Origin: a virus
Taxonomy: Duplodnaviria > Caudoviricetes
Strand: one strand, 5' to 3'
Virus record (IMG/VR): IMGVR_UViG_3300032053_000079
Location: 1-60,327 of that record
DNA: 60,327 bases
Shown: positions 6,266 through 45,700 of the stretch, piece by piece
How positions within the stretch are numbered: position 1 is the first letter of the stretch
How the letters are laid out: the number at the start of each line of letters is the position of its first letter
The notes under the pieces: model-generated
Databases searched by the model: none
What the model was told of the DNA's origin: nothing
What the model saw: the letters and a program-made list of their open reading frames with translations, nothing else
Made by a program: the position numbers and the translations under genes

Positions 6266-6928
6266 TTATTTTTTAGGTCTTCCCCAAGTTTTAGTTTTTT
6301 TATGACAATCTTCACAAAGTGTTCTTCCATTATCTAGTGCAAATCTAAGTTCAGGAAAGAGTGAGAATGGTTTGATGTGGTCTGCATGGAGTGTTCCTCC
6401 CCTTTGTCCACAAAATCTGCATGTCCAGTTATCTCTTTTGAATACTGCCTCTCTCCAAAGTTTGTATTCCAATGAACCTCTAATCTTTTTATTTATAGGG
6501 TTTATTCCACCCTTCCAAAAATTATTCTTTTCTCCTTTTCTGGATTCAGACATTTTTCTCCTTGTTTCTATAGATAATTTTATTCCTTTTTTTGCTTTTG
6601 ATATATTTTTCTTTCCAATATCTGACATACTTTTATACTTTTTGCCTTTTTTAGCTAGACTCATTTTTAATCTAGTTTCTTTAGATATATGTTGAACTCC
6701 TTTTAATCCTTTATTCCAAGGGGGTTGTCCCTTTTTAAATCTAGTTTCTTTCCCTATACCAAGCTTTTCTCTTGCTTCATTTACTTTTTTCTTATGTTCT
6801 TTACTCAATTTTATTCCTTTCTTTGTTAAACTAATTTTTCTTTTATGTTCCTCTGATTTAGGTATTCCTAAATTAATCCTATTTCCTTTTTTGAAACTTC
6901 CTGAATTTGTTTGTATTTCTTCTCCCAT
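6266..6928 (-). CDS. NUMOD3-repeat HNH homing endonuclease
   Basis: Repeated SxETRxKMS motifs; C-terminal RDNWTCRFC...HADHIKPF...[10 protein letters not shown]. Confidence 0.9.
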
Positions 6929-11238: not shown

Positions 11239-14200
11239 CTAACAAGTAACATTTGTAATCAAACCTTTATTTATACCTATAACACAATTTCCAATAGTTA
11301 AATTACCAGTAATAGTGCTTCCTGCATAATAATCTAATTTGCTTGTAAAAGGATTATAAGTTGTATAAAAATTAATATTTGTAGTGTTTCCAACAGTAAA
11401 ATTATTTGTTACTAAAGAATTTAAAATATTTGAAACTGAATAACTTGTATAATTAGTATTCCCAGTTGTGTTATAAACAAAAGAATAAATACCTGCTGGA
11501 AAGATGTTTGTAAATGGATTTGATTGATTTACTCCAGATTGATATAAATTACAAGTTAATTGACTTGGACAAGAACTTCCTGTAATTGTTGAGTATGTAG
11601 ATGCTGGAATTGTCCATCCACTACTTGAATTTAAAGATAAAATATAACTTGAATTTTTATCTATTGTATAAGAATAACTAATTGTTTGATTAAAATTATT
11701 AGATGAATCATTAGCCAAGAAAGAATAATTAAATATTCCTGCACTTAATCCTATCAATGTTTTATAATAAACATTTGAAAGATTAGACATTGTATAATTT
11801 ATATTATTAAAACTTAAAATAGCTGTATCAACTTTTACATTGTCTATCCAAGTTATATTAAAATTAACATCTGAATAATACATTATTGGAGATGATGGAT
11901 TTACTGATATATTTGAATAAGTTGGTGGAACTGATTCTGTTATAATTATATTTATGTTTGAATTTCCTATGTTATTATTTGTATCATTACAAAATACATT
12001 AATTAAAACTGAACCTGCTGAAAAGTCTATTGTCCAATTTGTTGAATAATTTTGAGTTGATGAATTTACTCCATTATTTAAATTATACCAACATACACTA
12101 GGATTTAAGTCACTAGATGTATAATTGATTGAAGTTGGTCTGCTTCCATAAGTATATGTTGTTCCATTAACTGGATAAGTTATATTAACTAATGGAAGAA
12201 CATTATCTATTGTAATTAAAGTTATTCCAGCACTACTTATTAAATTCGGAGTATAAAAAGCATTACTTGTACTATTCCCAGCAAACATACTAAAATCTGG
12301 TAAAAGATTTGTTGTACTTGTACTCATATTCCAAACATTCCCATTAGCAGATAAATTCTGCCAAGTAGTATAATTCCAATTTGCCCTTCCTTTTACATAA
12401 AGTTCTTTTACTTCATCAGAAGATAAGCTTCTGTTAAATATCATTATTTCGTCTATTGAGTTGTTTGCATACATAGATAATCCTGCACTAGAATAACTTT
12501 TAACTCCAATAAAAGCATTATTTGAAATAGATAAATTTGAGAATAAACCATTATTTGCGCCAGTACCCACAGAAAGAGTTTTTGAAACTCCATCTAAATA
12601 AATAGTATAATTAGTTCCATTTGCAGTAACAATTACCTGATGCCATTGATTATTAAATAATTCAGTTCTTGTTGCACTAGTATAACCAACTCTATTTCCA
12701 ACAGAACCATCATCTCTTGCAATTGTAATTAATTCATTTGTTAAAGTTCCTGTTACTCCATCTCCAATAAAAACTGCAAATAAATAAGTTCCTGAATAAT
12801 TACCAACACTAAATAAAGTTTGAGAAGTATCTGAACTAGATTTAACCCAGAAACCTAATGAACCCTGAGAATAATTTAAATTACTTGATGAAGATGTTAA
12901 ATTAACATACCCATTCACTCCATCAAAACTTCCCCCTCTAAAATAAACCCCATTTGTTGTAGTATTCGCCCTTCCTGTTGAATTCTGAGCAGTCCCATTA
13001 TTCCTTCCCATTGCATCTTTAACTTCTCCAGTAGTCCCATTCCAAGATGCTTCATCAAAATGATAATAACTAACTAAACCATTAGTCAAACTATTTGATT
13101 GATTATAAACAACAGCAGTATCTGTTCCTGAATTATTTCCTTTTTTATCTTTTGAGTTTCCATTGTCAAATCCCCACCAGGAAACAAGAGAAGCATCATC
13201 ATAATATGAAATATCTCTGCCTTGAGAATAGATATTTGCAATTTCGCTGCTAGACAGCGACTTATTCCATATCATTACTTCGTCGATGGAGCCGTTGAAA
13301 TAAGCTTTCTTTATGGCCTTTCCAATCGTTAAAGACCAGGTATTTGTAATATCACCAATAGAACTTAAATTAATTGCAGAATAATTTATTGCATCAACAT
13401 AAGTTTTTAATATATCTCCATTAAGGTCTATTGTTCCAACAAGATAATGCCAATTACTATCATTTATTGAAGGAGTTCCTGTTGTTGCACTCCAACCAGA
13501 ATTATTTCCTCCAGTATCTTCAACAAATGCATAAGGTTTACCATTAGCATCTAGAAATAAGCCAAATCCTTGTTTACCACTTCCAATCGAACCTCCTACA
13601 ATTTTATCAATAATATCTTTATTTGGTTGGAAACTTTTTACCCAGACACTGATTGTAACTTGATTAGTAATATTCAAACTACTTCCACTTCCCACATCAA
13701 CATAACTACTAGTATTAAACTCCGCCCAATGTGTCCCTAAATCATAATCCTTATATGCACTTCCCCCTACAGACGACCCACTACCAACTACACACGAACC
13801 TGCATCCCAAGCTCCTAATCTCGCACTTATATTGCTTCCAAAAAAAGCATTAAAAGATGTAGATAAATTAACCTGATTATATCCACTTGTTATATTTACT
13901 TGTTTTATTGTCTGAGTTCCTTGTGATTTAAATCTCTTGGATTGATTATTATAAATATCTGAAATCTGTGATGAATTTAATGCAGTGTTGAATATCATTA
14001 CTTCGTCGATGGAGCCGTTGAACTTATAACTTGTAGTTGTTCCAATACCAATTACAAAATTAGATGTTGATAAAGTTCCATTATCCATAGTAATATCTTT
14101 TGTTCCTGCATTTAATCCATTAACATACATAGTCATATTACCAGTTCTATTACCAATAACTATTACATTATACCATAAATTATTTGGACTTAATGCATAA

Positions 14201-15984
14201 TTTATATCTCTCATTCCTGATGCAGTTCCACTTCCCTTTATTCTAGCAGTTAAAATATTACCAATCTGAAATAACCAAAGCCCAGATGTTTCGCTATCAA
14301 CATAAGTTCCCATTATTCCCTCAAGGCTTGTAGAATTAGTTTTATACCAAACACTTAGACTAAAATCAGATGCTCCAATTAATGTATTTACAGTCTTTCC
14401 AGTATTTATATAATTAACAATACCTGTAAATTGATAGCATCCCCCATAAACACAAGTATTATTCCAGGTCGTATTAGTCAGCGTCCCATCATTATTATTC
14501 TTTGAATAATCATAAGTTACATTGTTTGCAGTATTTTCCTGAACATCAAAAGGATAATATGCAACTAAACCAAAATTATCATAGCCATATTGTGTTCCAT
14601 TTACAAATGTTCCATTGTTTGGTCCTATTGTATCCTGTGCAACAGAAATATTTGTATTATCAAATCTCCAGGCACTTACAAGTGAAGTATCTGTATAAGT
14701 TGTATCTTTTCTTCCTAGATTATATAATGAAGTTACTTCTGTTGAATTTAATGAACGATTGAGGATTAGGATGTTGTCGAGGGAGCCGTTGACAAACCAT
14801 GAATTAGCAGAAGTACTAAAATATAACTTTGTTCCAGTATATGCACCTACACCCTCTGTATTTCGATAATAACCAATAGGAACTCCGTTTCTATAAAATG
14901 TTTGATTAAAAATATCTCCAGAAACATTAGTAACTAAAGTATAATGATTCCAACTTCTAATTATACCTGCTCCAGTTATTGGGAATGCTCTTTGTGAACC
15001 TGTGCTATTAATGTGAGAACACTGAAAAATTGTTCCTGTATTAAAACCCATATAAAATTGACTTGATTGGTCTGAATAAAGAATCATCTGATAAGATGAA
15101 CTTGAACCATGATTTGTCCAAAAAGACACTGTAAATGATTCATTAAAATTAGTTACTTTATTGTTTATAGTAACATAACCGCTGCTTCCATCAAAACTTC
15201 CATAACTATTATCATCATCTTGAAAATAAGGCAATTGAGCCTCCCGAGTTGTATAATTAAATCCTCTCCAAGGAGAAGATGTGTCGCCGATTATGTCTAA
15301 GTGACTAAAATTAGCTTCTACAGTTACATTTGTTAAAATAGCTTCAGAAAAAGTAGTAAATGCAGAAATTATATAAGTACTATTGCTCCCTAGTTTTATT
15401 TCATCAACTAAATAAGGATTTTCTATTAATTCAATGCAATTACTTGTTTTACTATCTTTATCAATTACTAGTTTAACTTCTATTTGACTATCTACTTTAG
15501 ATTTAAATGAATCAGTCTTGCTTGATTTAATAGTTGTTGGAACTTTATAATTTTCATATTCTTTTTCTTTTTGTAATTCTTTTAATTTTTCATCAGTAAG
15601 ACAATAATCTATTCTTATATTTTGACCATCTAAATGAGTAAAACTTACATCATAATAAGAATCTATGCCTGTTTGAGAACTAACTATAAACTCTCCTGTT
15701 TTATATTCTTGCTGTCCGAAGTCTAAAGGTATTGTTATTTTATTAGAAATTGGTTTTTCTATATAATCCTTTAACTTAATCCAATTCGAACAATCAACAT
15801 ATCCTTTATTATCTAAAAGATTAGGATAACAACGATTTCCAGAACTAGAAAATCTAAGACATTCCATAACTATTCCTTTTTCTTGACAAAAATGAGTTTT
15901 ATCAGAAATTTGGTAACCAATTCCAGTTAGAATTATAATTAAAGAGATTATTCCCAAACCAATCCAAGCTTTTGAATCAACCAT
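11239..15984 (-). CDS. Large membrane-anchored protein with four LamG/concanavalin-like domains and Ig-like C-terminal modules (about 1581 aa)
   Basis: Likely start ATG 15984 (MVDSKAWIGLG, TM). Four NGS(I/L)D(E/N)-type LamG motifs, GLV(A/S)YYxFD motifs, many N-x-S/T sequons. Confidence 0.85.
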   Translation of the reverse strand: MVDSKAWIGLGIISLIIILTGIGYQISDKTHFCQEKGIVMECLRFSSSGNRCYPNLLDNKGYVDCSNWIKLKDYIEKPISNKITIPLDFGQQEYKTGEFIVSSQTGIDSYYDVSFTHLDGQNIRIDYCLTDEKLKELQKEKEYENYKVPTTIKSSKTDSFKSKVDSQIEVKLVIDKDSKTSNCIELIENPYLVDEIKLGSNSTYIISAFTTFSEAILTNVTVEANFSHLDIIGDTSSPWRGFNYTTREAQLPYFQDDDNSYGSFDGSSGYVTINNKVTNFNESFTVSFWTNHGSSSSYQMILYSDQSSQFYMGFNTGTIFQCSHINSTGSQRAFPITGAGIIRSWNHYTLVTNVSGDIFNQTFYRNGVPIGYYRNTEGVGAYTGTKLYFSTSANSWFVNGSLDNILILNRSLNSTEVTSLYNLGRKDTTYTDTSLVSAWRFDNTNISVAQDTIGPNNGTFVNGTQYGYDNFGLVAYYPFDVQENTANNVTYDYSKNNNDGTLTNTTWNNTCVYGGCYQFTGIVNYINTGKTVNTLIGASDFSLSVWYKTNSTSLEGIMGTYVDSETSGLWLFQIGNILTARIKGSGTASGMRDINYALSPNNLWYNVIVIGNRTGNMTMYVNGLNAGTKDITMDNGTLSTSNFVIGIGTTTSYKFNGSIDEVMIFNTALNSSQISDIYNNQSKRFKSQGTQTIKQVNITSGYNQVNLSTSFNAFFGSNISARLGAWDAGSCVVGSGSSVGGSAYKDYDLGTHWAEFNTSSYVDVGSGSSLNITNQVTISVWVKSFQPNKDIIDKIVGGSIGSGKQGFGLFLDANGKPYAFVEDTGGNNSGWSATTGTPSINDSNWHYLVGTIDLNGDILKTYVDAINYSAINLSSIGDITNTWSLTIGKAIKKAYFNGSIDEVMIWNKSLSSSEIANIYSQGRDISYYDDASLVSWWGFDNGNSKDKKGNNSGTDTAVVYNQSNSLTNGLVSYYHFDEASWNGTTGEVKDAMGRNNGTAQNSTGRANTTTNGVYFRGGSFDGVNGYVNLTSSSSNLNYSQGSLGFWVKSSSDTSQTLFSVGNYSGTYLFAVFIGDGVTGTLTNELITIARDDGSVGNRVGYTSATRTELFNNQWHQVIVTANGTNYTIYLDGVSKTLSVGTGANNGLFSNLSISNNAFIGVKSYSSAGLSMYANNSIDEIMIFNRSLSSDEVKELYVKGRANWNYTTWQNLSANGNVWNMSTSTTNLLPDFSMFAGNSTSNAFYTPNLISSAGITLITIDNVLPLVNITYPVNGTTYTYGSRPTSINYTSSDLNPSVCWYNLNNGVNSSTQNYSTNWTIDFSAGSVLINVFCNDTNNNIGNSNINIIITESVPPTYSNISVNPSSPIMYYSDVNFNITWIDNVKVDTAILSFNNINYTMSNLSNVYYKTLIGLSAGIFNYSFLANDSSNNFNQTISYSYTIDKNSSYILSLNSSSGWTIPASTYSTITGSSCPSQLTCNLYQSGVNQSNPFTNIFPAGIYSFVYNTTGNTNYTSYSVSNILNSLVTNNFTVGNTTNINFYTTYNPFTSKLDYYAGSTITGNLTIGNCVIGINKGLITNVTC
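13269..14022. repeat. Exact 31-bp direct repeat (13269-13299 and 13992-14022); partial third copy at 14776-14792
   Basis: ATATCATTACTTCGTCGATGGAGCCGTTGAA occurs twice; GTCGAGGGAGCCGTTGA occurs once. Confidence 0.95.
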
Positions 15985-16855
15985 AAATATATCCTGACTC
16001 TCGTAATTCCCACGAATTGTCAAAATTAGTATTAGAATCTGCAAAATTAACAGCTGTTGTTTGTCCTGTAGAATTATTTGTAAATTTCTTAATCTGCCAA
16101 ACTAGACTAGAATCTGCACTTCCAGGCACTGCCAAACCTACATAAATAACAAATCCATTAGAATCATAAGCAATTCTTTGAATATAAGTATCTAATAAAT
16201 TAGTTGAATTTACTGTTCCATCGACCGTAATTGTATTTCCTCCATCTTGAATATTAACTGCACTTGCACCGTTTGAATTATTAATTGTAACATCACCTAT
16301 GTCTGTTCCACTAACTAACTTAGTATTTATACTTGCTAAATTTCCCCCAGTTTCTAAAGCCAAAGTAGAAGTATTAAGATTTGTTCCTGCATTAGCAGTT
16401 ACAGTCCCAGTTATAGAAGGTAAAGTTGTTACAGTTCCTACATTTACTGCATCATCAGTAGTATTTAGATGTCTTATATCTAAATGAGTTGCACTAACAT
16501 TTGCATTTAAATTACTAGCAGTAGATTGTTTTACTTCAACAGAATCACTTACACTTGTTAGATCTCTAATATCTAAATTAGTAGCAGTTATTCCTTCACC
16601 ATCAAGTGTAACTTTTACATCGTTAGTTTGAGTTCCAGCAGAGATATTATTAATATCTACATCTTGAACTATTACATTTCCACTTAAAGTAATTTCAGTA
16701 TCTACAGGAAGTGGATTGCTTGAATTAATTACATTACCTGAATCATCTACTAAAATAATTCTTTTTGCTAAAGCTGTTAGAGAATCTTGGTTTGCTTCTT
16801 GTAAATCTAAATCTACAGTTGAACCGTCATTTCTCTTTATTAATCCTCGTGACAT
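15977..16855 (-). CDS. Probable virion fibre/decoration-type protein
   Basis: Thr/Asn/Val-rich repeats (LDIRxL twice) and C-terminal YDSNGFVIYVG...WQIKK domain; own BRE/TATA about 25 nt upstream. Confidence 0.5.
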   Translation of the reverse strand: MSRGLIKRNDGSTVDLDLQEANQDSLTALAKRIILVDDSGNVINSSNPLPVDTEITLSGNVIVQDVDINNISAGTQTNDVKVTLDGEGITATNLDIRDLTSVSDSVEVKQSTASNLNANVSATHLDIRHLNTTDDAVNVGTVTTLPSITGTVTANAGTNLNTSTLALETGGNLASINTKLVSGTDIGDVTINNSNGASAVNIQDGGNTITVDGTVNSTNLLDTYIQRIAYDSNGFVIYVGLAVPGSADSSLVWQIKKFTNNSTGQTTAVNFADSNTNFDNSWELRESGYIYG

Positions 16856-17626: not shown

Positions 17627-17914
17627 CTATTTAACCAACTCATTTTTTATTTCTGTTTTTCTTTGGCAATTTGGACAAGTTACAAAATTAGGATTAGCTC
17701 CTTTATAAATCCAAGAATAATTACATTTATCGCATTTTATTTTTGTTGGTTTAGTTAATTTAATATTAAGAACTCTTTTTATTGAATGTATTTTTGTATG
17801 GCAAGATGAACAAATATTTAAAATTATTTTATTCTCATAATCTATATGATGTTCTTGAAGTTTTTTTTCTTCCCCACAAAGTTGACATATCCCCATTTTA
17901 GTGGTAATTACCAC
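17627..17914 (-). CDS. HNH-like domain plus zinc ribbon
   Basis: CxxC...HHIDY...CxxCH, then CxxC...CxxC. Confidence 0.7.
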   Translation of the reverse strand: MVITTKMGICQLCGEEKKLQEHHIDYENKIILNICSSCHTKIHSIKRVLNIKLTKPTKIKCDKCNYSWIYKGANPNFVTCPNCQRKTEIKNELVK

Positions 17915-18641: not shown

Positions 18642-19259
18642 TTATTCCACTTTTTTAGGAACGATATTTCCACTTTTTGATTTAAGTATCTCTTTATTAT
18701 CTCTTTTAGTATCACAATTTTCTATATAGTCTATTATATATTTCTTATAACTACTATCAAAACAGATAGTTTCATTCTTTTCTAAATTAAGAACAGAACT
18801 ACCAGATTCATCACCACAATAATTTAAAACATTCTTTTTAACAGTAGAACCATTTATAAAACTGTCAAAAGTAACTCTTTTATAAAAAATAACAGTTATC
18901 TTACTTGAAATGAATTTCTTGAAATTATCTGGGGTTCCTACTAAAACTAAAACATTATTATTATGATTAATTAGTCTAAGTGTATTTTCTATTTGTTTCT
19001 TTCTTTTCCTGTCATCTAAATCAAATAAACTCTGAAATTCGTCTATAAATATTATAGATTCTTTAATCTTTTCTAATTCCTCTATTGTATAAAATTTATT
19101 TGATTCTATGTTTGCTTTAAGTCCATAAGTAGATAAATTAAAATCAAACTCTTTTTTAAGTTCATTAATTAGATAATAAACTAAATTACTCTTAGCCTCA
19201 TTTACATCTCCAATTATTGATATTATTTTTGGATCCTTGAAATATTTTGTTATTTTCAT
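18642..19259 (-). CDS. P-loop ATPase
   Basis: Degenerate Walker A (IIGDVNEAKS) and Walker B (IIFIDE). Confidence 0.7.
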   Translation of the reverse strand: MKITKYFKDPKIISIIGDVNEAKSNLVYYLINELKKEFDFNLSTYGLKANIESNKFYTIEELEKIKESIIFIDEFQSLFDLDDRKRKKQIENTLRLINHNNNVLVLVGTPDNFKKFISSKITVIFYKRVTFDSFINGSTVKKNVLNYCGDESGSSVLNLEKNETICFDSSYKKYIIDYIENCDTKRDNKEILKSKSGNIVPKKVE

Positions 19260-19807
19260 ATTAAATTGTCCATATCTTCTTTAAAACATTGTTTAGCATA
19301 TTCCAAAAACTCGTCTGGATAGTAATCGTTTACATCTTGGTAAGTTGCATGAGCTGGAAAGCCCTCTTTGTTTTCTTTAAAAAACTCTTTAAGTAACTCG
19401 TCTTTATTACTACTTAGCCAATCTTCAAAATAATTTTCATCATAAGTTTTCATTTTTATCTTTCCTCATACCATTTGACTGCTCTATCTAATTCTTCTTC
19501 TTGTTTTTCTTCAGAAAGAGAATAAAACCATTTATAATATTTCTTCATTTCTCTGTCCATAAATTCGCTGAATGTTAATTTTTCTAAATTATCTGTCATA
19601 TTAAATCTTTCTTTGTAAGTTTATTTTTTAATAGTCTATCCCATCTATTTTCATAAAAAGAAGAACTATCAGAAGTTGGTGCATAATTTTTTAGAAACTC
19701 TAAGGCATTTTGTAAATCCTCTTTATTGAAATCTCCTTCTAAATCATCTAAAAATTCTTTTAATTCCTCTATTAACATATTTTCTGAATAATTGTAAGTT
19801 CCCATTT

Positions 19808-19951
19808 TTAATTAATTTCATCAACATCAATAATATTTAAAGAGTAACTACCATCTTTAATATACTGCTTTGCTTCTTTCAAAGCTTCTTCTTCTGATTT
19901 TGCTTCAATTCCTGAAATATCTAAATCAACACTTATAAAATATCTTTTCAT
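19808..19951 (-). CDS. Small protein (47 aa) whose start codon is the element insertion site
   Basis: Translated by hand: MKRYFISVDLDISGIEAKSEEEALKEAKQYIKDG...; lacks an adjacent SD, which instead lies at 21006-21011. Confidence 0.6.
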   Translation of the reverse strand: MKRYFISVDLDISGIEAKSEEEALKEAKQYIKDGSYSLNIIDVDEIN

Positions 19952-21001
19952 ATAAAATTAGGCAGGATACCCAAGACTTTAGGCTTGGGAGGAATGCCGT
20001 GCTTCAGATTGCATAGCTTCCTGCTTAACCTCCATAACTCTTCTTCCTTTATAATCTTTAAATTCCATAAAATTATAATACCTTTTATTAATCCACCTTG
20101 CTAAATCAATTATCTTAGGATCTCGCTTCTTTGTAGAATTTCTGTTAAATTGCATTATAAATGGTTTAACTTTCAAATCAATAAGTTTCTTAGTTCTATA
20201 CATATCCTCTTCAAATGTAGAGTTAAATCCAACCAATACATAAATCATAATATTCTGTGGTTTTATACCAACAGAAATTAATTTATTAATTCCATTAGTT
20301 ACTAACTCTTCATCTTTGATATTATCCCATGCAAAATAAAGTCTTTTTGTTTTAAATTGGTCATCTTTATAATCTACCTTTGAAAGCATTTGTGCTTTTT
20401 CTTCTGTAATTAATCTTAAATCTAAACCTTGATTAAAGCAAACTTTAATCTTATTATCTATAAAATGTTGTAACTTCTCTTTCCAATTAGGAGAAGCTAA
20501 AAAATTATTGTCTAAGAGTAAAACTTTCTTTTGTTTAATCCAAGATATATCAACATCTTTCATAATCCCTTCTTTTTCTCTAACTATACAAAACTCACAA
20601 TTTCTTATACATCCTCTTGAAGTAAATCCAATAGAATAATCTAATCCAAATTTCTCATAATCTGGTGTAATTTCTTCTATTTCTTTTGGAAGTTCAGCTT
20701 TAATATCATATCCAGAACCTCCCATAAATATCTTAGAGCCAAACCAAAAGTCTGCTTTAATAGTTGAGAGGTCTACAAAGAAAGTCTCGTGTCCTTTTTC
20801 TTCATAAAACTTTGCTAACTTCATTAAAGCTAAGTTAGGCAATTTTCCATCTACTTGAATTAATCCAATCTTAGCCATAGAAATCTCCTATTTTTAATTG
20901 ACCTTTCAGCTCTTCTGAACATTCTCTTTCAATCTGTTTGTTTTTGTTTATTTCCATAGTTGTTAAGATACCCCATCATTTATGATGTGGGAGTATGTCA
21001 T
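19948..21001 (-). mobile_element. Non-autonomous IS200/IS605-like element with radical SAM cargo
   Basis: Two GC-rich subterminal hairpins with TAAA loops and shared CTCCCA...TAAA...GGGTATC (20967-20996 and 19961-19998); ATGA at both boundaries; no tnpA or tnpB. Confidence 0.7.
19979..20878 (-). CDS. Radical SAM protein
   Basis: FTSRGCIRNCEFC (CxxxCxxC), LLDNN and QGLD motifs; N-terminal PNLALMK. Confidence 0.9.
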   Translation of the reverse strand: MAKIGLIQVDGKLPNLALMKLAKFYEEKGHETFFVDLSTIKADFWFGSKIFMGGSGYDIKAELPKEIEEITPDYEKFGLDYSIGFTSRGCIRNCEFCIVREKEGIMKDVDISWIKQKKVLLLDNNFLASPNWKEKLQHFIDNKIKVCFNQGLDLRLITEEKAQMLSKVDYKDDQFKTKRLYFAWDNIKDEELVTNGINKLISVGIKPQNIMIYVLVGFNSTFEEDMYRTKKLIDLKVKPFIMQFNRNSTKKRDPKIIDLARWINKRYYNFMEFKDYKGRRVMEVKQEAMQSEARHSSQA

Positions 21002-21748
21002 TTTTACCTCCGATTTTAATCGTTTTGTATGTCTCCTTTTAAATAAATATCTATCATTATATTAGCAATAGTATCTTTATAGTTTCCTTCAAGTGCATTA
21101 ATTAATTTTTTAAATTCAGATTCTTTTATCCAAAAAGTCTTTAAAATTAGGTTTTTGTGCTTATTTTTTTCCATTTTTAACTCCTTCAAAAAATAATCTA
21201 TCTGATTCACTTATATTTAATTCTGTATTATAAAGAGTTTTTAATATAAATTTTATATAATCCAGATATTCTCTAGCGGATTTAATACAATCGGCTTCAA
21301 AAGTTAAATTAATATCTACATTAAAATTTATCATTTTTTAAACTCTCCAACTGATTAGTATAAAAACTGATTACTTCAAAACTGACTGAATTATCAAAAG
21401 TCTTAATTATTTCAGTTAATCTTTTAATTCTTTCTTTGTTACTTAATTGTTTTTTCATATTGTAAATCTTCTATTTCTAAATTTTTTATATCTTGACTTA
21501 AATTCATAATTTTCTTTAAATCTAAATTAAGAGTTTTCATATATTGTTTAAATTCTTTTTCACTTTTCTTTTTTCCTTCAAGTTTAATACTTTGAGATAA
21601 CTCATAAAAAAGTAAACTAAGTTTATGATATTTTTCGCTTAAATACTTAAATTTATTGCTTGTTCTTATATAGGTTAAATGTGAGTCCATTTTTTAAATT
21701 TTATATTTATTTCTAAGAATTATATCAAATTTGACTATATCAAGTCTG

Positions 21749-21810
21749 AACCTCATCAGTACCGATTAAATCGGTAGACATAAAAAAATAAATTAAATTA
21801 TGTTTCGGTT
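21749..21810 (-). ncRNA. Hammerhead ribozyme, type II
   Basis: Minus strand reads AACC-GAA-ACAUAA...UUAUGU-C-UACCGA-UUUAA-UCGGUA-CUGAUGA-GGUU: full core, three stems, GUC cleavage triplet. Confidence 0.9.
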
Positions 21811-22152
21811 TTATTCTTCTTTTATACCTTTTTCTTGTTCTGTTGCCCAGTCTTCAAGATCCTTTAAAGTTGTTTCGTTAGTTAGATTAAATTCTATTTC
21901 TGTACCATCATTTGAATTAGTCCATAAAGCAACTACATTACTTTTAACCAATTCGCAATTTATAGGCATATAAAGACTAAAATTATATTCTTCAGACCAA
22001 ATATAAGTATACCCACTATTCTTATTTACTGCAACCTCACCATAAGAGTCTGTGTTTATACCTAATTCTTCAGCAATTCCCATTAAAAAAACTGCTTTCT
22101 TTCTTTCCCAGTCACACATATCATTAAATTTAAATTCCATTATTCTAAACAA
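21811..22152 (-). CDS. Hypothetical early protein directly upstream of the hammerhead
   Basis: 113-aa ORF whose stop codon abuts ribozyme stem II. Confidence 0.6.
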   Translation of the reverse strand: MFRIMEFKFNDMCDWERKKAVFLMGIAEELGINTDSYGEVAVNKNSGYTYIWSEEYNFSLYMPINCELVKSNVVALWTNSNDGTEIEFNLTNETTLKDLEDWATEQEKGIKEE

Positions 22153-25801: not shown

Positions 25802-26932
25802 ATGGAAATTAAAGAGTTATCTGAAATAAAACTATTTGAAATGTTTGCAGGATATGGTGGAGGAAGTTTTGCTTTGAAAAAAGCCAACATTCCTTTTGAA
25901 TTAGTTGGATATAGTGAGATTGATAAATTTGCTATCAAATGTTTTGAACAAAATCATAAAGGAAATAATTATGGAGATTGTAAACTAATTAATCCAAATG
26001 ACTTACCAGACTTTAATTTATTGACTGGAGGTTTTCCTTGTCAAGATGTATCTATTGCAGGTAATAGGAATTTATCAAAAGGAAGAACTAATTTATATAA
26101 AGAGATTATAAGAATTGCTGAAGTAAAAAAACCAAAATATATGTTATTAGAGAATGTTAAAGGATTGTTAAGTATGGGAAAAGAAAGGAAACTAGTCAAT
26201 ATAATTGTTTCTGACTTGCAAAGAATAGGTTATGGTGTTTGTTGGAAAGTATTAAATTCAAAAGATTATGGAATACCTCAAAATCGTGAAAGAGTATGGT
26301 TTGTTTGTAAATATGGTGGTTGGAAATTTGGAGAATTTTCATTTCCTAATAAAGAAGAGTTAAAACTTAAATTAGGAGATATACTAGAAGATAATGTAGA
26401 TAAAAAATATTACCTAACTGAAAAGACTATCAAAATGTTTTTGAAACATAGGGTTAGACAAATAGAAAAGAAAAATGGATTTTTCTTTTCTCCAAAAACT
26501 GTTGATTCTATTTCTAATTCACTTACAACTAAAGAGGGTAGTCGTGCAACAGATAATTTTATATTACAGAATAAATATTCTGAAAATCGGATTTTCAGAA
26601 TATCTCCTACAATTACTTCAACAGAAAGTAAAACAACATATTTAGTTCATTCATTATTTCCTAGAACTGGAAATCCTAAACAAGGTGGAACAGGACATTT
26701 ATATAAAGATGATGGAACTTCTTATTGTTTAGATACTGGAAATTGTTTAACTCAATTGCTTGACAATTTCCAGTTTCGTAGATTAACTCCTAAAGAATGT
26801 TTTAGGTTAATGGGTTTCTTAAATGATGAAATTGACTTAACAGGACTAAGTGATAATCAATTATATAAATTAGTAGGTAATGGTTGGGAAATAAATTTAG
26901 TAAGTAAAATATTTAAGGAGATGTTTAAATGA
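25802..26932 (+). CDS. dcm: DNA (cytosine-5) methyltransferase
   Basis: Motif I FAGYGG, IV GFPCQ, VI ENV, VIII QNRER, IX RRLTPKEC, X GNG. Confidence 0.95.
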   Translation: MEIKELSEIKLFEMFAGYGGGSFALKKANIPFELVGYSEIDKFAIKCFEQNHKGNNYGDCKLINPNDLPDFNLLTGGFPCQDVSIAGNRNLSKGRTNLYKEIIRIAEVKKPKYMLLENVKGLLSMGKERKLVNIIVSDLQRIGYGVCWKVLNSKDYGIPQNRERVWFVCKYGGWKFGEFSFPNKEELKLKLGDILEDNVDKKYYLTEKTIKMFLKHRVRQIEKKNGFFFSPKTVDSISNSLTTKEGSRATDNFILQNKYSENRIFRISPTITSTESKTTYLVHSLFPRTGNPKQGGTGHLYKDDGTSYCLDTGNCLTQLLDNFQFRRLTPKECFRLMGFLNDEIDLTGLSDNQLYKLVGNGWEINLVSKIFKEMFK

Positions 26933-27069
26933 AAAAGAAATGTCCTCATTGTAATAGTACCAAATTTAAAAAGAATTTAGATAATAATTCATGGGTCTGC
27001 TCTAGATGTGGTTATATTAATGATTTAAATAAATTACCTCAATTTGTAACATGGGAAAAGAAGAATTAG
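26929..27069 (+). CDS. Zinc-ribbon protein (46 aa)
   Basis: Translated by hand: MKKKCPHCNS...WVCSRCGY. Confidence 0.65.
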   Translation: MKKKCPHCNSTKFKKNLDNNSWVCSRCGYINDLNKLPQFVTWEKKN

Positions 27070-37182: not shown

Positions 37183-37361
37183 TGACAGTTGTAAAAACAG
37201 CAAGTGCTTCGAGTGTTGGACAGACAAATTGGATTAGAATAAGTGGAACTATCCAAGAAGTATTAAACGCATTATCTTCTGAAAGTATGTCTGCATTAAA
37301 TGTTCCTTACTATACAGATAATGGTACTGATGCCGTTGCGGTGGTCTGCCGTCAGAGGTGA
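37182..37361 (+). CDS. 59-aa protein, paralog of 40632-40817
   Basis: MTVVKTASASSVGQTNWIRISGTIQEVLNALSSESMSALNVPYYTDNGTDAVAVVCRQR. Confidence 0.75.
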   Translation: MTVVKTASASSVGQTNWIRISGTIQEVLNALSSESMSALNVPYYTDNGTDAVAVVCRQR

Positions 37362-37365
37362 CTCT

Positions 37366-40300
37366 GTGGCAAATAAATATTTAATAGGATTTCTATTATT
37401 GGTTGTTTTATCTACATCTGCATATATTGTTTTTAATCAAAATGAATTAAAAATAAATGTATCGAAGACTTCTACTACTTTTTATGTAAATCAAACTGGA
37501 CTTTTTGAAACTTCTGGAGTAGAATATAATTCTATTTATAATGGAACTAAAAAATTAACAGTTTCTTCTGATAATATATTTGTAACCACTGAAATTAAAG
37601 ATAAAGATGTATTTATTTATAGAACTGCAAATTATTTAAATGGAATGATTGTTAAAGATACATATTATTTTCAAGGAAATAATGACAAAAAAGAGAACTT
37701 TCCAATAAAACATACTATTGAAATAATTAATGGAAAAGGATTAATTTATGAATATAAAGTAAATAAATTAGATTATTCAGGTTCTACTATTAAAAATCCA
37801 AAATCTCCTCAATCTTTTGGTAAAAATATGAAGGTTACTTTTCAAGATGGTTATTATTATTCTAATCTTGCTAAATTAACTTCTGGTGGAGAATTAAAAG
37901 TTAAGTATAAAATTAATTCAGATAATGAGATTTTTAATGTAAGACTTTTTGACCCAATTTGGATTGGATGGACTACACAAAATGAATGTTTTCCTGGTGA
38001 TATAACTACTTCTAATTCAAGCCAGATTATTCAATGTAATGTTTCATCTACTGAAGGAATAAGCCAAATTAAATTTAATTGGGATGGAACTAATTATTCA
38101 TTGTTTGATTCTTCTTTAGTTTTATTTTATAATTTTGATAATAGAAGTGCTTTAGGTGAAAACTCAACTCATGTTAAAGATTTAAGTATTTATGGGAATA
38201 ATGGGACTGTTTATGGAGGTTCAAATATTAGTTGGACACCTAATGGGAAATATAATGGTGCTTTTAATTTTAGTGGAAATAGAAGTTATATAAGAAATAC
38301 AGGAACTAATTTTTATTTTACAAATAATACAGATAAAACAATTTCTTTATGGTTTAATGCAAATAATAAAGGTTCTTCACAGGCATTTATAAGTTTTGGA
38401 AATACTGCACATGGGATTAATTTTTATCTTAATTCTGCTGGAACAGGAATAATTCAATATCAAAATTCTAGTGGAGGTACACAAACTTCGGTACTTAATT
38501 TTGGGACTTCTAACTATAATTATGGTTCTTGGTATAATTTTATTATTAGTTTTTCTAGTGGAACTAATTATACTTCGTATTTAAATGGTGTTCTTATGAC
38601 TAATGTAAATTTAACATCTCTTTATAATTATACAAATAGTCAAGTTACAGTTGGTGCATTTTCAGATGCAACATATTTTTTCAATGGAACAATAGACAAT
38701 TTAATGATTTTTAATAAAAGTTTATCTTCATTAGAAGTTTCTCAGTTATATAAGAGTTCTCTAACTAAATATAATTCACAAAACTGGACTTTTACAACTA
38801 ATCAAACTTTTAATTATTCAACTTCATTAATTAATACGACTAATCCAATAAAAAGCTGGAATTATTATTTATGTTCTTCTAATTTAAGTGGAAGTGAGAA
38901 TTGCACATCACAAAGAACAATTACTCAAACAATTCCTAATAAAAATGTTATAATTAATTTTACTACTTCAATAGGAAATATTAATAATAACTTTTATGGA
39001 ATAAATGATGAATATTTAGTTTTATCAAATTCTGATTATTCTATTTTAGATGCAGATTGTGATGGAACGAGAGATACTCCTATTGATTTTAATAAGAATT
39101 TAAATTTGTTTACTAATGCAAAAATGAATTATGTAAGAGTTTGGGCTTTTATGCACAAGATTTCATTATCTGAAGGAGATTATAATCAGACAGTTATAAA
39201 ATATTTAATGGATGAAGCACAACGAGTTAATAATCAAAATGGAAGATTAATGATTACTTTTAGAGGGGCAGATGTAATGCCAGACTGGTTACAAAATAGA
39301 ACTACTGGATATTGTAATTCAACAGGTTGGGGAACTTGTACATCAAATAATGACACAAAATGGGCAGAAATAGTAAATTATGTGTTAAATAATCTAACAA
39401 CAGTAATACCAGAAAATAGAATAGATGTTGAGATAATGAATGAACCCTATGGAAATAAATGGTTAAATAATCTAACAACAGATGATATAACAAAAGGAAT
39501 AGAATATGTAAAGATATATAATACAACTTATGATTATCTTAAAGCAAGACATCCAAATATTGCAATAGGAGGAGCTGGATTTTATCATTCTTATCCTGTA
39601 ATAACAAATACCTTTTTAAGTAATATGACAACAAAAATAGACTTTGTTGATATTCATCCATATACAGGAACTTCTTATATATCTTCAAATCAATTAATCT
39701 CTGATGTTAGTGTTTTATTAGGGAATTGTACTTTATATGGGGCTAATTGTTCAAGAATTGTTTTAGGAGAATGGAATATTGTAAATGGTTATAGTTTAGC
39801 AAGTAATTTATATGAAACAGAAATAGCTTATGCTTATTTATCTATATTAAACAATTATCCTAACAATATAACTTCTTCCTTTTTCGAATTTACAAAATGG
39901 GAAAGTTATACTACTTGTTCAGCATTATTTCCAGAATATCCTTATAACTATCCTATGTTTATAGAATTAGATAATTATATAGCACCAACTTACAACGTCA
40001 CCAAAAACTTCGCAACTTACTGTCCCTCGTCGTCAACAGTATATCAATCTTCAAGTGATGATTCAACAATAAAAACAGTAACTTGTAAAGATGGAAATAA
40101 ATATAATATAATTTTGATAAATACTGGGACAAATTCGATAAATGCGAGTGTTAATTTAAGTGGGAACTATCCTTATAGTTCTATTACCAATTTAGTAACT
40201 GGAACAATTTATAATCTTCATAGTAATGTAGATGTAGGCATTATGGATTCTTATAATATATTTTACTTAGGAAGTGGTGAATTAAATGTATCACTAGGTA

Positions 40301-40632
40301 GTAATATAAGTGCTGTAGAATTTAGACCAAGTAGAATGAATAGTCAAGACGTCTGGGCAGTAAATCAAACAAACACTAAAGGAATATTCAATATTTCAAA
40401 TACTGGATTCGGTACTGCAACTATTGGAATTAAACTTAATCAAACTCAATCTGGTTGGGGAATTGAATGTAATAATCAAACAAGCGGTTCTTGGATTAAT
40501 CTTACTACTAATTATCAGACTATTTATTCAAATTTGCTTGGAGAAAGTAGTTTTCAAGTATGGTGCAGGGCAGACTTAAATTATCCAACTAGTCAATTTA
40601 AAGGGAGGATATATTTTAATATAACAAGTTAA
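37366..40632 (+). CDS. Membrane-anchored protein with LamG domain and clan GH-A (GH39-like) glycoside hydrolase domain
   Basis: GTG 37366 after SD GAGGTGA; N-terminal TM; FNGTIDNLMIF; catalytic-like IMNEP, DIHPY and LGEWN. Confidence 0.75.
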   Translation: MANKYLIGFLLLVVLSTSAYIVFNQNELKINVSKTSTTFYVNQTGLFETSGVEYNSIYNGTKKLTVSSDNIFVTTEIKDKDVFIYRTANYLNGMIVKDTYYFQGNNDKKENFPIKHTIEIINGKGLIYEYKVNKLDYSGSTIKNPKSPQSFGKNMKVTFQDGYYYSNLAKLTSGGELKVKYKINSDNEIFNVRLFDPIWIGWTTQNECFPGDITTSNSSQIIQCNVSSTEGISQIKFNWDGTNYSLFDSSLVLFYNFDNRSALGENSTHVKDLSIYGNNGTVYGGSNISWTPNGKYNGAFNFSGNRSYIRNTGTNFYFTNNTDKTISLWFNANNKGSSQAFISFGNTAHGINFYLNSAGTGIIQYQNSSGGTQTSVLNFGTSNYNYGSWYNFIISFSSGTNYTSYLNGVLMTNVNLTSLYNYTNSQVTVGAFSDATYFFNGTIDNLMIFNKSLSSLEVSQLYKSSLTKYNSQNWTFTTNQTFNYSTSLINTTNPIKSWNYYLCSSNLSGSENCTSQRTITQTIPNKNVIINFTTSIGNINNNFYGINDEYLVLSNSDYSILDADCDGTRDTPIDFNKNLNLFTNAKMNYVRVWAFMHKISLSEGDYNQTVIKYLMDEAQRVNNQNGRLMITFRGADVMPDWLQNRTTGYCNSTGWGTCTSNNDTKWAEIVNYVLNNLTTVIPENRIDVEIMNEPYGNKWLNNLTTDDITKGIEYVKIYNTTYDYLKARHPNIAIGGAGFYHSYPVITNTFLSNMTTKIDFVDIHPYTGTSYISSNQLISDVSVLLGNCTLYGANCSRIVLGEWNIVNGYSLASNLYETEIAYAYLSILNNYPNNITSSFFEFTKWESYTTCSALFPEYPYNYPMFIELDNYIAPTYNVTKNFATYCPSSSTVYQSSSDDSTIKTVTCKDGNKYNIILINTGTNSINASVNLSGNYPYSSITNLVTGTIYNLHSNVDVGIMDSYNIFYLGSGELNVSLGSNISAVEFRPSRMNSQDVWAVNQTNTKGIFNISNTGFGTATIGIKLNQTQSGWGIECNNQTSGSWINLTTNYQTIYSNLLGESSFQVWCRADLNYPTSQFKGRIYFNITS

Positions 40633-42568: not shown

Positions 42569-42721
42569 ATGAAATACTTAAAAAAACAAATATTAATATT
42601 ATTTATCTTTTTCCTATCATTGCTTATTAGTCTTGGATTTGTTAGTGTTGTTGAATGTGGTAATATTCCTACAAATGGTTGTATTGTTTCTAGTTCGCTT
42701 TTAGGAGGGTATTATGAATAA
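42569..42721 (+). pseudogene. Signal peptide plus short Cys motif, probable truncated adhesin 5' end
   Basis: MKYLKKQILILFIFFLSLLISLGFVSVVECGNIPTNGCIVSS..., ending over the next start codon. Confidence 0.45.
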
Positions 42722-45700
42722 ATTATATTTTATGCTTGTTATAATGGGAATTATGTTGCTTAGTTTAGCAATGGTTAGTGCAGGAACAGCTATCGACGCT
42801 ATTAAAACTTTTGATTCTGTAGTTCCAAAAATATTAAATGCAACACAATTTAATTCTTCTCAAAATTGGTTTGGTGGAGTTGGATCTAACAATACTTTAA
42901 GGCAAACTTATGATATGAGCAATAATATAGCTTGGGGTTTGATGTGGAGATACAATCACAATCTTACAACAGAACTAGGTTATCCTGATCCCTATTATAA
43001 TAATTTAACAATTAAAAGATATGCTCTATCGATGGGAAAATACCTCGCTGATGTTTATGATCTTAACGACAGTTATCCTTATTCATGGAATGAAGGTTTT
43101 GTTATTAATGCTTTTATTCTCGCTGATTATGCTAATTTTTATCAGGAAGCAAATTCATCAATTCCAAATTTAACAATAGCAGGAGATATAGATTCAACAT
43201 GGACTAATTCAAGTTCAAATCATGTTTATTATGCTAATCCTGAAAGATGGGTAAATCAAACTTCATCAGGTGTAGGTTGGATTGCAGGTAATTCATCAAC
43301 AATATCTTCTCATTTTGTAATTCAAGGACAGCAAGGAAATAATTATTTTGATCTTGATAATAATTCTCTTTTAGATATGGATTTGAGTGTTTGTGTTACT
43401 TATAATGATTCTCATGGCGGAGTTACACCTGCAAAACTTCAAGCTCTAAAACTTGATGGAACAACTTATTATGATGTTATTCTGTTTGCTGACGCTAATA
43501 ATTCACAGATAAAAACTACTTGCGGAACATTCAATCATACAATTACTAAAATGACAAATCATGGAACTACTGATGAGAGAATAACTACTCGATGGACTGG
43601 AAATTTAAATTATGATACACGCAATACAATTTATATTTATAATGCAAGTATTTCAACTCCTGCAACACAGAATTATCCTCGTGGAGCCGACTATCAACTT
43701 GATATGAAACAATATGCTTTAAGAGTTATGAATACATCAGGATCTAATTTTATTGCATTATGGGACGCTGATACTAATTACTGGATAGCAAATCAAAAAT
43801 CAGCAGCTCTTGCTGCTTTAATGTCATGGAATAAAATATTTAAAGACGCATATCAATTCAACGTAACAACTTTTGATAATTCTTCTCTTAATGGAATGTA
43901 TAATGTCACAGCTTATGTAGAAACAGAATATAACACATGGATTATTCACCCTGACGGAATTCCTAAAGAATGGAATGAAGAAATGACTAATAGATTATTT
44001 GGTGGTTACGATTCTAATTATCTTGTAGCTTCAACTGCATACTGGTCTTTGATTCATAATTATTCTTCAAATTCAACATTCAAAGCACAAATATGCTCTG
44101 ATTTAAACAGAACTATGAATAATTTTCAATACTTAATTCTTCCAACTCAAGCTAGTGGATTTCAACAAATAGGATTAGGATCAAGAGTTACTGACGGACA
44201 AAACACATTAATTGGAACTTATAATTCTACATCAGGCAATTTCACATCAGAAGTTCTGCCTTATGGATTATTTTCAATAGTCTATGCTGCAAAATGTGGA
44301 TCAGGATCTCAAAAGCTTAATTATTTCTTAAATAATAATTGGAGTGCAATAGATGATTCTTGGCACAGCGTCGGATATGCAGGACAGACTGAAGGTTGGC
44401 TTATTCATGCTTATAAATTTTGGGATTCTCAAAATGTTAGCTCTGCACCTATGCCTAATCAAGATGGAGTTTCACATTTATTAAACTTGAATAATACAGG
44501 ACTGACTTTTGTAGAGAGAGGAAAATATCTTGCATGGATTTCATACGGTGGAGCTTCACCTTCAGGCGGAATAATATCAGACATACTTAATAAAAATACT
44601 TGGACACATCTATTTTCAGGGAGATCTGTCAATAAAGTAGGTTATGGAATTGGAAAATTAATCAATAATGAAGATCTTATAATTAATGAAACATTTTTCA
44701 CACAATTTGGTGATAAAGAAGCAGATATTGATTCAGCAACTGTTTATCATGCTTATGTTGCCCTAGAAGAAAGATGGATTAATGGATCTAATTTTGAAGA
44801 ACCAAACACAACAAATTCATATATGTATTTAGTTTTTGATAATGCTAATATTTGGGACGCTGATTCAAACAATCAAAGTGATTATGATTTTAATGTAACT
44901 ATCGTCTATAATGATACTTCAAAAGTCCAACAATTAGATATTCTCTATGCAAATGATACTGATTCAACAGGATATTATAGAAATATATCCGCTTTTGCAA
45001 ACCTGAATGATTCACAGATAAAAACAGTTTCTTTTATCTTAAATACCTCTTATAATTTATCTTTCAAAGAACATGGAGCAGGATTAGGATTTAGAAGATA
45101 TGACATGAGATTTGGTGGTGGCGGAGTTGATGGAGATCACTTTATTCAAATTTATAATCTTTCAGTTTCTATGATAGGAAATTCAACTTTATACAAAGAT
45201 ACAGGAGCAACAGAACCTGATTATAATAATGTTTTTGCAGGAGTTACAACAACATCAGAAATTCTTTCAGACACTTATCCATATAAAATAAGATATTCAG
45301 GAAATTTCACAAAAGACACTTCTTCAGGAAATGGAAATAACAATAAAATCCACATATCCGACGACACTTTCATAACAGAATATACTTTCTATGATAATTA
45401 CATAGAGGTTAATCAAACAACTAGTATACCTTCTTTATTAGAATTGTACCCAATATCAATAGCAACAATAGGAACGGATCAGATTAAAGGTGTAGAAGCA
45501 AGAGGAAGTAATAAACTTGATGGTAGTACAATAATTCCTCTTAACTTTATAATGGATTATTCAGATGGCTATAATAATGCATCTTGGGGAATGGTAGATA
45601 AATTTAACTCGTCTGGAAATAGTTATAATTATATTATACAAACAAGTGATACGGGGGGTTTTTTAGAAGTTTTTGGAGATAGTTTTCTTATTAATAATAC

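Follow-up and report, generated by a model that had tools for sequence, protein, structure and literature searches.

Why does a radical SAM gene in IMG/VR record IMGVR_UViG_3300032053_000079 lie between two matching hairpins, each next to the tetranucleotide ATGA, and directly ahead of a 47-aa gene that has no ribosome-binding sequence of its own? The record is a complete virus genome of 60,327 bp with direct terminal repeats, and its full length is the stretch of DNA analysed here (the window). An earlier reading of this stretch, hereafter the original prediction, took the segment at 19948-21001 for a transposase-less IS200/IS605-like shuttle that is mobilised in trans and brings cargo genes into operons without disrupting them. 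Our results make it very likely that the segment is a non-autonomous member of the IS200/IS605 superfamily with ends of the ISC (IscB/HEARO) type, that its transposase gene tnpA was lost by deletion, and that it could be moved only in trans. The family, the anatomy, the variety of cargo, the linkage to tnpA and the location at gene starts are shown by the data; mobilisation in trans, the choice of strand, the cut sites and translational coupling are what we infer, and the window copy itself is only putatively mobile.

The element and its borders comprise the following features, in which the hairpins keep the names given in the original prediction (ORF, open reading frame; SD, Shine-Dalgarno sequence):

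19952-21001, plus strand: whole element by the IS608 convention, 1050 nt, from after the target TCAT (19948-19951) to its own terminal TCAT (20998-21001).
19948-19951, minus strand: ATGA (TCAT on the plus strand; TTCAT at 19947-19951), the target or transposon-adjacent motif (TAM), also the start codon and first following base of the 47-aa gene.
19961-19998, minus strand: 'right' hairpin, an imperfect palindrome built from a basal stem of 4 bp, an internal 5x5 loop, an apical stem and a TAAA loop; model match 75.3 bits.
Between the 'right' hairpin and the ATGA at 19951-19948, minus strand: linker of 9 nt.
19945-20042, minus strand: conserved end module of the 'right' side, encoding the last ~15 residues of the radical SAM ORF (KQEAMQSEARHSSQA).
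19979-20878, minus strand: radical SAM cargo ORF, 299 aa, CxxxCxxC motif spanning residues 90-97; terminated by the TAA in the loop of the 'right' hairpin.
20871-20957, minus strand: 28-aa ORF, in which the 3' portion (20881-20924) derives from the 3' end of a tnpA gene; its stop overlaps the radical SAM start.
20963-21001, minus strand: leader mini-ORF, from the element's terminal ATG through the hairpin (MTYSHIINDGVS); its stop lies 5 nt before the next ATG.
20967-20997, minus strand: 'left' hairpin, 31 nt, imperfect; model match 67.8 bits.
20941-21005, minus strand: conserved end module of the 'left' side, including the hairpin and the following start ATGGAAA(T/C)AAACAAA.
20998-21001, minus strand: second ATGA copy, the element's own terminal ATG.
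21002-21011, minus strand: flank with the SD GGAGGT (21006-21011) and an AAAA spacer, now preceding the element's terminal ATG.
19808-19951, minus strand: 47-aa downstream (target) gene, with no SD-like motif upstream, in frame with the radical SAM ORF and 27 nt after its stop.

The predicted layout was present in full and in place, that is, the SD, both hairpins, the 28-aa ORF, the radical SAM gene, the ATGA copies and the SD-less 47-aa gene, and the cargo does stop at the TAA within the 'right' hairpin loop. Inspection of the sequence revealed that the segment is bounded exactly by the two ATGA copies, and that deletion of one copy together with the interior would set the SD at normal spacing before the 47-aa ORF. 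The SD at 21006-21011 is presumed to be the original ribosome-binding site of this gene, to which a domain search assigned no family. Both hairpins represent one motif, repeated in direct rather than inverted orientation, and the element has no terminal inverted repeats. Both hairpins follow one design (conserved CAT-C-TCCCA, variable stem, TAAA loop, stem complement, GGGTATC), and a U-rich run lies 3' of the 'right' hairpin. Similarity of the window to other loci ends at about 19945-19948 on one side and at about 21003-21008 on the other.

We aligned the hairpins of the window with those of 24 other loci (30 rows in total) and scored covariation. The results showed that five of the eight apical pairs had changed on both sides, and that the covariation score was 0.44, compared with at most 0.09 for slid partners; none of 500 shuffles reached the observed score. 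As relatives show these compensatory stem changes, the hairpins are more than chance structures. They are the only such motifs in the 60-kb genome, and the combined motif was found in 0 of 100 shuffles. A first, overly permissive pattern scan of viral contigs gave 112 or more matches in high-GC contigs, most of which lacked a stem and were dropped as chance. Low-GC viral contigs contained many copies of both hairpin types, with stems that were different yet complementary. With a covariance model derived from the aligned rows, many single matches gained a partner, which gave left-right pairs 300-2300 nt apart. Rfam has no family for the hairpins and returned no match in window 19000-22000 at E ≤ 10. 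Covariation, the model matches and the relatives linked to tnpA and IscB described below bear out the prediction that these ends are subterminal hairpins of the IS200/IS605 type.

Relatives of the element carry the transposase that it lacks. Genes of the Y1_Tnp family were found between the same ends at L123, L124, L125, L126, L133, L137, L144, L158 and L172 (L numbers denote the loci compared), with L203 and L204 as further examples. Nine aligned TnpA proteins shared invariant HUH histidines and the RYIxEQ tyrosine; the NCBIfam IS200/IS605 transposase model matched at 130 bits against a cut-off of 55, and the best matches in the PDB were the TnpA proteins of Sulfolobus, IS608 and ISDra2 (2vhg, 2a6m, 2xm3). 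A profile search recovered 46 viral tnpA loci, of which 11 were close relatives (55-100% identity) and 35 distant. The end hairpin lay downstream on the same strand at 10 of the 11 close loci, including L204, where a weak partial model match was confirmed by reading the sequence; the eleventh was cut by the contig end. Among the distant loci, only 2 of 35 gave matches, which were weak and on the opposite strand. Elements that bear tnpA and have these ends, which the original prediction had proposed to look for in hosts, are present in viral contigs. Neither iscB nor tnpB adjoined tnpA at any of the 11 close loci. The gene order around tnpA varied, with an Arc-like ribbon-helix-helix (RHH) gene, tnpA, an N6_N4 methylase and three small ORFs at L123, tnpA and a split methylase at L124, and tnpA followed by a radical SAM gene 59% identical to that of the window at L125. 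The RHH gene of L123 (3386-3526, plus strand; 46 aa) lies between the end hairpin and tnpA, and it matches the recently described Arc repressors of IS605 elements (bioRxiv 10.64898/2026.09.24.754181).

The same ends occur in cellular ISC transposons. A pattern specific for the 'right' hairpin detected 20 viral loci and 47 loci in cellular genomes, the latter spanning Ktedonobacteraceae, Methanosarcina, Woesearchaeota, Nanoarchaeota, Paceibacterota and Bacteroidota. In Ktedonobacteraceae (L148, L159, L171, L177, L183), the gene ending in or just before the hairpin encodes IscB (RRXRR plus HNH), and HEARO RNA lies upstream at L148, L177 and L183. The HEARO matches of the IscB loci scored 95-140 bits in the same search that found none in the viral tnpA loci L123-L126; a separate Rfam search of window 19000-22000 (E ≤ 10) found none either. 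An omegaRNA-like RNA had been envisaged at the right end of the window element; that expectation failed, and IscB elements carry this RNA at the other end (PMC10055086). Methanosarcina genomes contained HEARO-plus-hairpin mini-elements without iscB: in the metagenome-assembled genomes L146, L157 and L168, HEARO RNA (95-120 bits) and the end hairpin were separated by 200-450 nt in which no iscB ORF occurred, as multi-copy mini-elements consisting of omega RNA only. Several cellular genomes held many copies that were alike up to the ATGA and then continued into unrelated flanks. The pattern retained 63 ends, 62 with ATGA and one with GTGA, and itself demanded A/GTGA after the stem; the linker measured 9 nt in 57 of the 63. 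Cellular ends without ATGA were seen at L155, L160 and L165. On the chromosome of Ktedonosporobacter rubrisoli (L156), a group II intron reverse transcriptase/maturase gene with an HNH domain lies just upstream of an ISC-type end hairpin, and one mobile element may be nested in another there. According to Kapitonov, Makarova and Koonin (2016; PMC4810608), ISC transposons have subterminal hairpins recognised by Y1 transposases, insert at GT|GG, GT|GA or N|ATGA, and have left empty sites in Microcystis and Halomonas. The N|ATGA target reported there and the IscB/HEARO loci found here confirm the statement, in the original prediction, that ATGA is a target motif of these elements.

The 28-aa ORF ahead of the cargo gene, which the original prediction had listed without giving it an identity, proved to contain a remnant of tnpA. 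In its peptide, 14 of 15 residues are identical to the C-terminus of the L124 TnpA, and window 20924-20881 matches tnpA 3' ends over 44 nt (91% to L124, 86-89% to L123 and L172). A Y1_Tnp search of the complete virus genome returned no match at E ≤ 1, in line with the claim that the element travels without a transposase. Since a tnpA 3' relic is retained, L125 carries a radical SAM gene 59% identical to that of the window, and the virus has no tnpA, the window element is best read from these sequences as a tnpA-deleted derivative of a 'tnpA + radical SAM' element. Without tnpA, it could move only in trans.

The end modules are far better conserved than the rest of the element. The 'right' module matched L031 at 58 of 58 nt, L145 at 92% over 111 nt and L151 at 91% over 89 nt, and the 'left' module matched L031 at 94% over 66 nt and 12 other loci at 78-88%. 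The cargo differed at these loci, being a C5 methylase at L145, an N6_N4 methylase at L151 and a methylase at L031, whose virus (G001) has a terminase 46% identical to that of the window virus. Overall, the genes found between such ends encode N6_N4, Dam, C5 and other DNA methylases, PAPS-reductase-like, RNA-ligase-like and radical SAM proteins, and proteins of unknown function. The varied cargo expected of a shuttle family was thus observed. Cargo ORFs and iscB commonly end in the hairpin loop, just after the stem, or at the TGA of the ATGA. In the window, homology of the radical SAM protein to its relatives ceases near residue 276-283 and the last ~15 residues come from the conserved transposon end, so the suspicion that this tail had been appended was correct.

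The cargo matched phrog_9298 ('radical SAM domain protein') at E 1.7e-67 over residues 3-283, and the Pfam Radical_SAM match was weak (14.8 bits, below the cut-off of 29.5). The CxxxCxxC motif was invariant in seven homologs, and homologs with 23-37% identity were present in viruses of Bacteroides, Clostridium and Methanomassiliicoccales. An AF2 model of the protein (pLDDT 76.9) was compared with known structures by Foldseek, which returned MiaB, MtaB, RimO and MgmA at E 1e-6 to 2e-4 (MiaB and MtaB at about 1e-6 with TM 0.55-0.58; overall TM 0.5-0.58). The model looks like a Rossmann-like domain at the N-terminus joined to a radical SAM barrel, the layout of MiaB, RimO, MtaB and class B methylases. 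Because sibling cassettes carry mostly DNA methylases, a nucleic-acid-modifying role for this protein is a reasonable guess, though only an inference. The covariance-model search found no such ends at the radical SAM homolog loci L003-L010; the gene is therefore not always carried on an element of this kind.

One viral contig, L054 (IMGVR_UViG_3300028581_002462), showed a more complex arrangement. On its minus strand (~1360-2045 and 841-891), two 'left'-type ends are separated by 617 nt, with a methylase gene behind each and the two genes different from one another; the second of these ends begins at an ATGA whose TGA is the stop codon of the first methylase, and a truncated end of the other type follows the second gene. 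Judged from this order, the arrangement looks like tandem or nested insertions. The contig also carries a tnpA-bearing copy (L124/L197).

We then compared the position of the ends with gene starts. The ATG on the side of the left end (LE, as defined below) opens an ORF of at least 40 codons at 14 of 20 viral and 23 of 43 cellular ends. As background, 160 of the 627 ATGA sites in the 60-kb window genome (25.5%) open such an ORF, and the excess was significant for both sets (binomial p 4e-5 for viral and 8e-5 for cellular ends). At the opposite ends, 20 of 23 ATGA copies do not lie within a long in-frame ORF, and in 14 of 23 the upstream ORF either ends at most 40 nt away or overlaps the ATGA at its TGA. 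A leader ORF of 12-14 codons stops 1-8 nt before the ATG of the first gene at 16 of 23 ends, that of the window included. The leader ORF and the cargo ORFs that run into the end suggest translational coupling. At L131/L243 (IMGVR_UViG_3300031227_002748), the border of an element coincides exactly with the start codon of a gene for the terminase large subunit. None of eleven related terminase genes (53-86% identity) is preceded by a hairpin, and some of them begin with an unoccupied ATGA, so the element is present in 1 of 12; the comparison is not an exact empty site, as the contig ends before the other end of the element. This presence and absence supports an insertion.

The strand on which a transposase would act was derived by comparison with IS608. 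In that element, both cuts fall on one strand: the first follows TTAC and lies 19 nt 5' of the LE helix, and the second follows TCAA and lies 10 nt 3' of the helix at the right end (RE). Insertion takes place 3' of TTAC (PMC3201880). In an IscB element, the TAM TTCAT adjoins LE, and the omega RNA comes from RE with its guide outside the element (PMC10055086). Read on the plus strand, the window has TTCAT (19947-19951), then 18 nt up to the foot of the apical helix of the 'right' hairpin; at the other border, the foot of the 'left' hairpin helix is followed by 6 nt and TCAT (20998-21001), which places the predicted cut 10 nt from the foot. Spacings of 18 nt and 10 nt accord with the 19 nt and 10 nt of IS608. 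Because this spacing fits and the TAM TTCAT adjoins LE, the plus strand, opposite to the genes, is most likely the strand on which TnpA acts. The segment ends at 19948 and 21001 given by the original prediction stand, and its naming of the sides is reversed, the 'right' hairpin being LE and the 'left' hairpin RE by the IS608 convention. Both ends have an invariant GATA at the IS608 guide position, and both cleavage motifs are TCAT. One ATGA copy is expected to come from the target and one from the element, an arrangement different from the usual target duplication.

Under the mechanism that we propose, a Y1 HUH transposase encoded by a co-resident element, either in the host or in another virus, would act in trans and bind both subterminal hairpins on the single-stranded plus strand. 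At each border, cleavage would follow TCAT; the LE cut would lie 18 nt 5' of its helix and the RE cut 10 nt 3' of its helix, and the excised single-stranded circle would be re-inserted 3' of another T(T)CAT. Because TCAT is the reverse complement of ATGA and the terminal motif of the element is also TCAT, insertion at a start codon would leave the cargo co-directional with the target gene, keep the target ATG, and place the element's own ATG behind the ribosome-binding site of the target. Translation could then proceed as a coupled chain from the leader mini-ORF through the tnpA relic and the radical SAM gene to the target gene.

Traces of movement were sought around the site and in metagenomes. 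The 205-aa neighbour had no viral relatives, and a blastn search of the 7 kb around the site against GenBank phages gave 0 matches. In G001, neither the 47-aa nor the 64-aa neighbour found a match, an empty answer that shows little there. The 69-aa neighbour had relatives at L194 and L195 (79-87% identity), where that gene alone was shared and no hairpin was present. Contigs of four sediment metagenomes contained no joint of 19951 to 21002, a result that says nothing either way because contigs drop rare variants. Joints of 20001 to 20962 and of 20000 to 20881 were seen, with short sides of 22-24 nt; these probably come from other elements, for example cargo-less tnpA elements like L172. When the four metagenomes were mapped on window 19000-22000, the summed contig depth was 790, 529, 198 and 663 over 19909-20009 and 147, 26, 17 and 84 over 20919-21019, with flanks at a depth of about 12 in the run that is the likely source and of 0-5 in the other three. 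In the richest run, the depth over the two ends was 10-60x that of the virus itself. Contigs of the source run stop inside both hairpins, one run yielded a 53-nt unitig covering exactly 19948-20000, and loose contig ends show other flanks with (T)TCAT plus linker. As many organisms contribute to them, these depths demonstrate a high repetition of the ends in the samples and are not proof that the window copy moves. The window element is single copy in its virus, and the family is multi-copy in Ktedonobacteraceae and Methanosarcina.

Several points weigh against an element mobilised in trans. An empty-site allele of this copy, which the original prediction had named as a check, was looked for and not found, nor was an excision joint, in the neighbour-gene, blastn and metagenome-contig searches, relatives sharing one neighbouring gene only; no transposase source was identified for the window virus. 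The pairing of guide and cleavage site cannot be derived from the IS608 rules, which leaves the invariant GATA only suggestive, and with two ATGA copies the sequence cannot tell which was the target's. The folding energy of the hairpins is by itself unremarkable (z -1.5 to -2.4; 5-17 of 200 shuffles fold equally well), and the rows of the covariation alignment had been filtered for at least three apical pairs, which inflates the percentage paired and leaves the compensatory changes unaffected. An SD-like 4-mer precedes only 9 of the 23 'left'-type ends. In the window element, 27 nt separate the radical SAM stop from the target ATG, where many relatives have the two overlapping, and coupling may therefore be weak in this copy. 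Part of this evidence would suit a fixed relic, that is, a single IS200/IS605-type insertion that lost tnpA and became immobile with a domesticated cargo, its hairpins being leftovers or mRNA structures: tnpA is reduced to 44 nt, the virus has no transposase, and neither empty site nor joint was seen. We consider this unlikely, as the ends are intact and, at 58/58 nt and 94% over 66 nt, match those of a virus with a 46% identical terminase, a likeness that decay would not be expected to preserve; moreover, non-autonomous members far outnumber autonomous ones in this superfamily (PMC4810608, PMC10055086).

Slightly less probable still is that cargo turns over and spreads chiefly when co-infecting viruses undergo homologous recombination at their conserved end modules, in other words by cassette exchange rather than by transposition of each cassette. 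End modules of 60-110 nt that are 91-100% identical between elements with unrelated cargo could serve such exchange, the start ATGGAAACAAACAAA is common to different methylase genes, and L054 has two like ends in tandem; however, cassette exchange cannot place elements at unrelated genome positions beside unrelated genes, and the occupation of a terminase start in 1 of 12 related viruses and the tight linkage to tnpA also argue against it. That the hairpins are RNA-level regulators of a phage moron (a terminator, an RNase site or a translational operator) unrelated to transposition appears very improbable: the U-rich run after the 'right' hairpin, the ORFs that read through both hairpins and the precise placement of stop and start codons would fit, whereas the same hairpin, linker and ATGA end multi-copy IscB/HEARO transposons in bacteria and archaea, are specifically linked to one Y1 transposase clade, and match no Rfam family. 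A chance pairing of two GC-richer patches and two ATGA tetranucleotides around a gene can practically be dismissed; the modest folding z and the 627 ATGA sites of the genome are outweighed by dozens of homologous ends with covariation and by a combined motif absent from all 100 shuffles, which already refute it. A non-autonomous ISC-type element that could be mobilised in trans is therefore the reading that we prefer.

A broader proposal goes beyond the window. The viral elements may form a separate class of Y1 'plug-in cassettes' in viruses of small-genome archaea and bacteria, with ISC-type ends minus the RNA-guided nuclease, carrying tnpA plus one enzyme gene (mostly for DNA modification) and spliced translationally into operons via ATGA, as an integron-like vehicle of anti-restriction genes. 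On this view, target and terminal motif would both be the start-codon tetranucleotide ATGA, the target's ribosome-binding site would drive the leader mini-ORF through the hairpin, the cargo would re-initiate, and its stop would overlap or precede the restored start of the target gene. We hold this proposal tentatively, its chances being nearly balanced and leaning somewhat against it. If it is true, promoter-less genes would pass between virus genomes without harm in an integron-like manner. If the cassettes are mobile, they would offer a concrete mechanism by which 'moron' and anti-restriction genes hop between unrelated viruses, and their placement at start codons would offer a reason why the IscB lineage favoured an ATGA/TTCAT target. 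The arrangement also provides a compact, naturally occurring plan for placing a gene without its own promoter at a start codon.

The surroundings of the element were also recorded. The window virus is a tailed virus, as shown by its genes for terminase, portal, major head and tape-measure proteins, and the cassette sits within a long leftward block of small genes where G+C is about 20-30%. No RRXRR (PF14239) match was found in the virus, nor any above-threshold TnpB match; a sub-threshold TnpB-type zinc-ribbon match (15.4 bits) at 26935-27024 adjoins the virus's own methyltransferase gene. This 376-aa DNA methyltransferase (25802-26932, plus strand; phrog_116, E 2.5e-79) is not flanked by the hairpins described here. 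An HNH endonuclease gene lies at 6266-6928 on the minus strand (several PHROGs, E to 1e-16), and a 95-aa zinc-ribbon protein with an HNH-like HHIDxxN..CH motif is encoded at 17627-17914 (minus strand); a similar small HNH gene adjoins the element in L031. The 1601-aa ORF at 11239-16044 (minus strand) gave partial matches only, to a virion structural protein family, and ORFs of more than 1000 aa without a PHROG match lie at 37300-40632, 42714-46316 and 56531-59977. Cassettes with the same ends, some nearly identical to that of the window, were found at L151, L153, L149, L155, L164, L187, L161 and L172, on contigs binned as Woesearchaeota, Nanoarchaeota, archaeon GW2011_AR20 or Paceibacterota, and these contigs may be viral. 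The bins hint at a small-genome host (DPANN, or the candidate phyla radiation, CPR) for the window virus.

We finally compared the element with known systems. As in the described ISC transposons (PMC4810608), the end consists of a hairpin, a fixed 9-nt linker and ATGA; the subterminal hairpins are recognised by Y1 transposases without inverted repeats, the last ORF runs into the end, and most members are non-autonomous. In contrast to those transposons, the window element and the viral tnpA elements have neither iscB nor HEARO/omega RNA, their slot holds tnpA and/or a non-nuclease cargo, and they reside in virus genomes. With IS608 and ISDra2 (PMC3201880, PMC5934647), the relatives share a homologous HUH-tyrosine TnpA and a cut spacing of ~18-19 nt at LE and 10 nt at RE; the viral family differs in its target (TCAT/TTCAT versus TTAC/TTGAT), in having the same tetranucleotide as the motif of both ends and in lacking tnpB, and all genes of the window element are antisense to the predicted active strand. 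ISGst5-type IscB elements (Meers et al. 2023 preprint, PMC10055086) likewise have the TAM TTCAT, the reverse complement of ATGAA, an iscB read from RE toward LE, and a bias to sit co-directionally behind upstream genes; that study concerns nuclease-assisted retention, whereas the window element has no nuclease. Protein-less derivatives of the PATE/REP type (PMC4810608) and the Arc(RHH)-bearing IS605 elements (bioRxiv 10.64898/2026.09.24.754181) are comparable as deletion derivatives mobilised in trans and, at L123, through the Arc-like RHH gene; unlike the PATE/REP type, the window element keeps a full-length enzyme gene.

In the open-access literature, we found no report of viral IS200/IS605 or ISC elements whose cargo is a methylase or radical SAM gene, and no statement that elements with an ATGA target sit on start codons; the term 'start codon' has 0 occurrences in the available text of PMC4810608, PMC10055086, PMC13565253 and the Arc preprint. 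The window element and its viral relatives represent a cargo-bearing, nuclease-less form of a known transposon kind in virus genomes, and judging by where these ends fall, the operon should stay intact. IS200/IS605 elements otherwise count as minimal transposons, whose only genes are those for a transposase and an RNA-guided nuclease. The nearest functional parallel is the gene cassette of integrons, a promoter-less single gene that is bounded by imperfect hairpins recognised as single strands and is expressed from signals outside it. Integron cassettes differ from the window element in relying on a tyrosine integrase, other sites and a fixed platform, and the parallel implies no homology.

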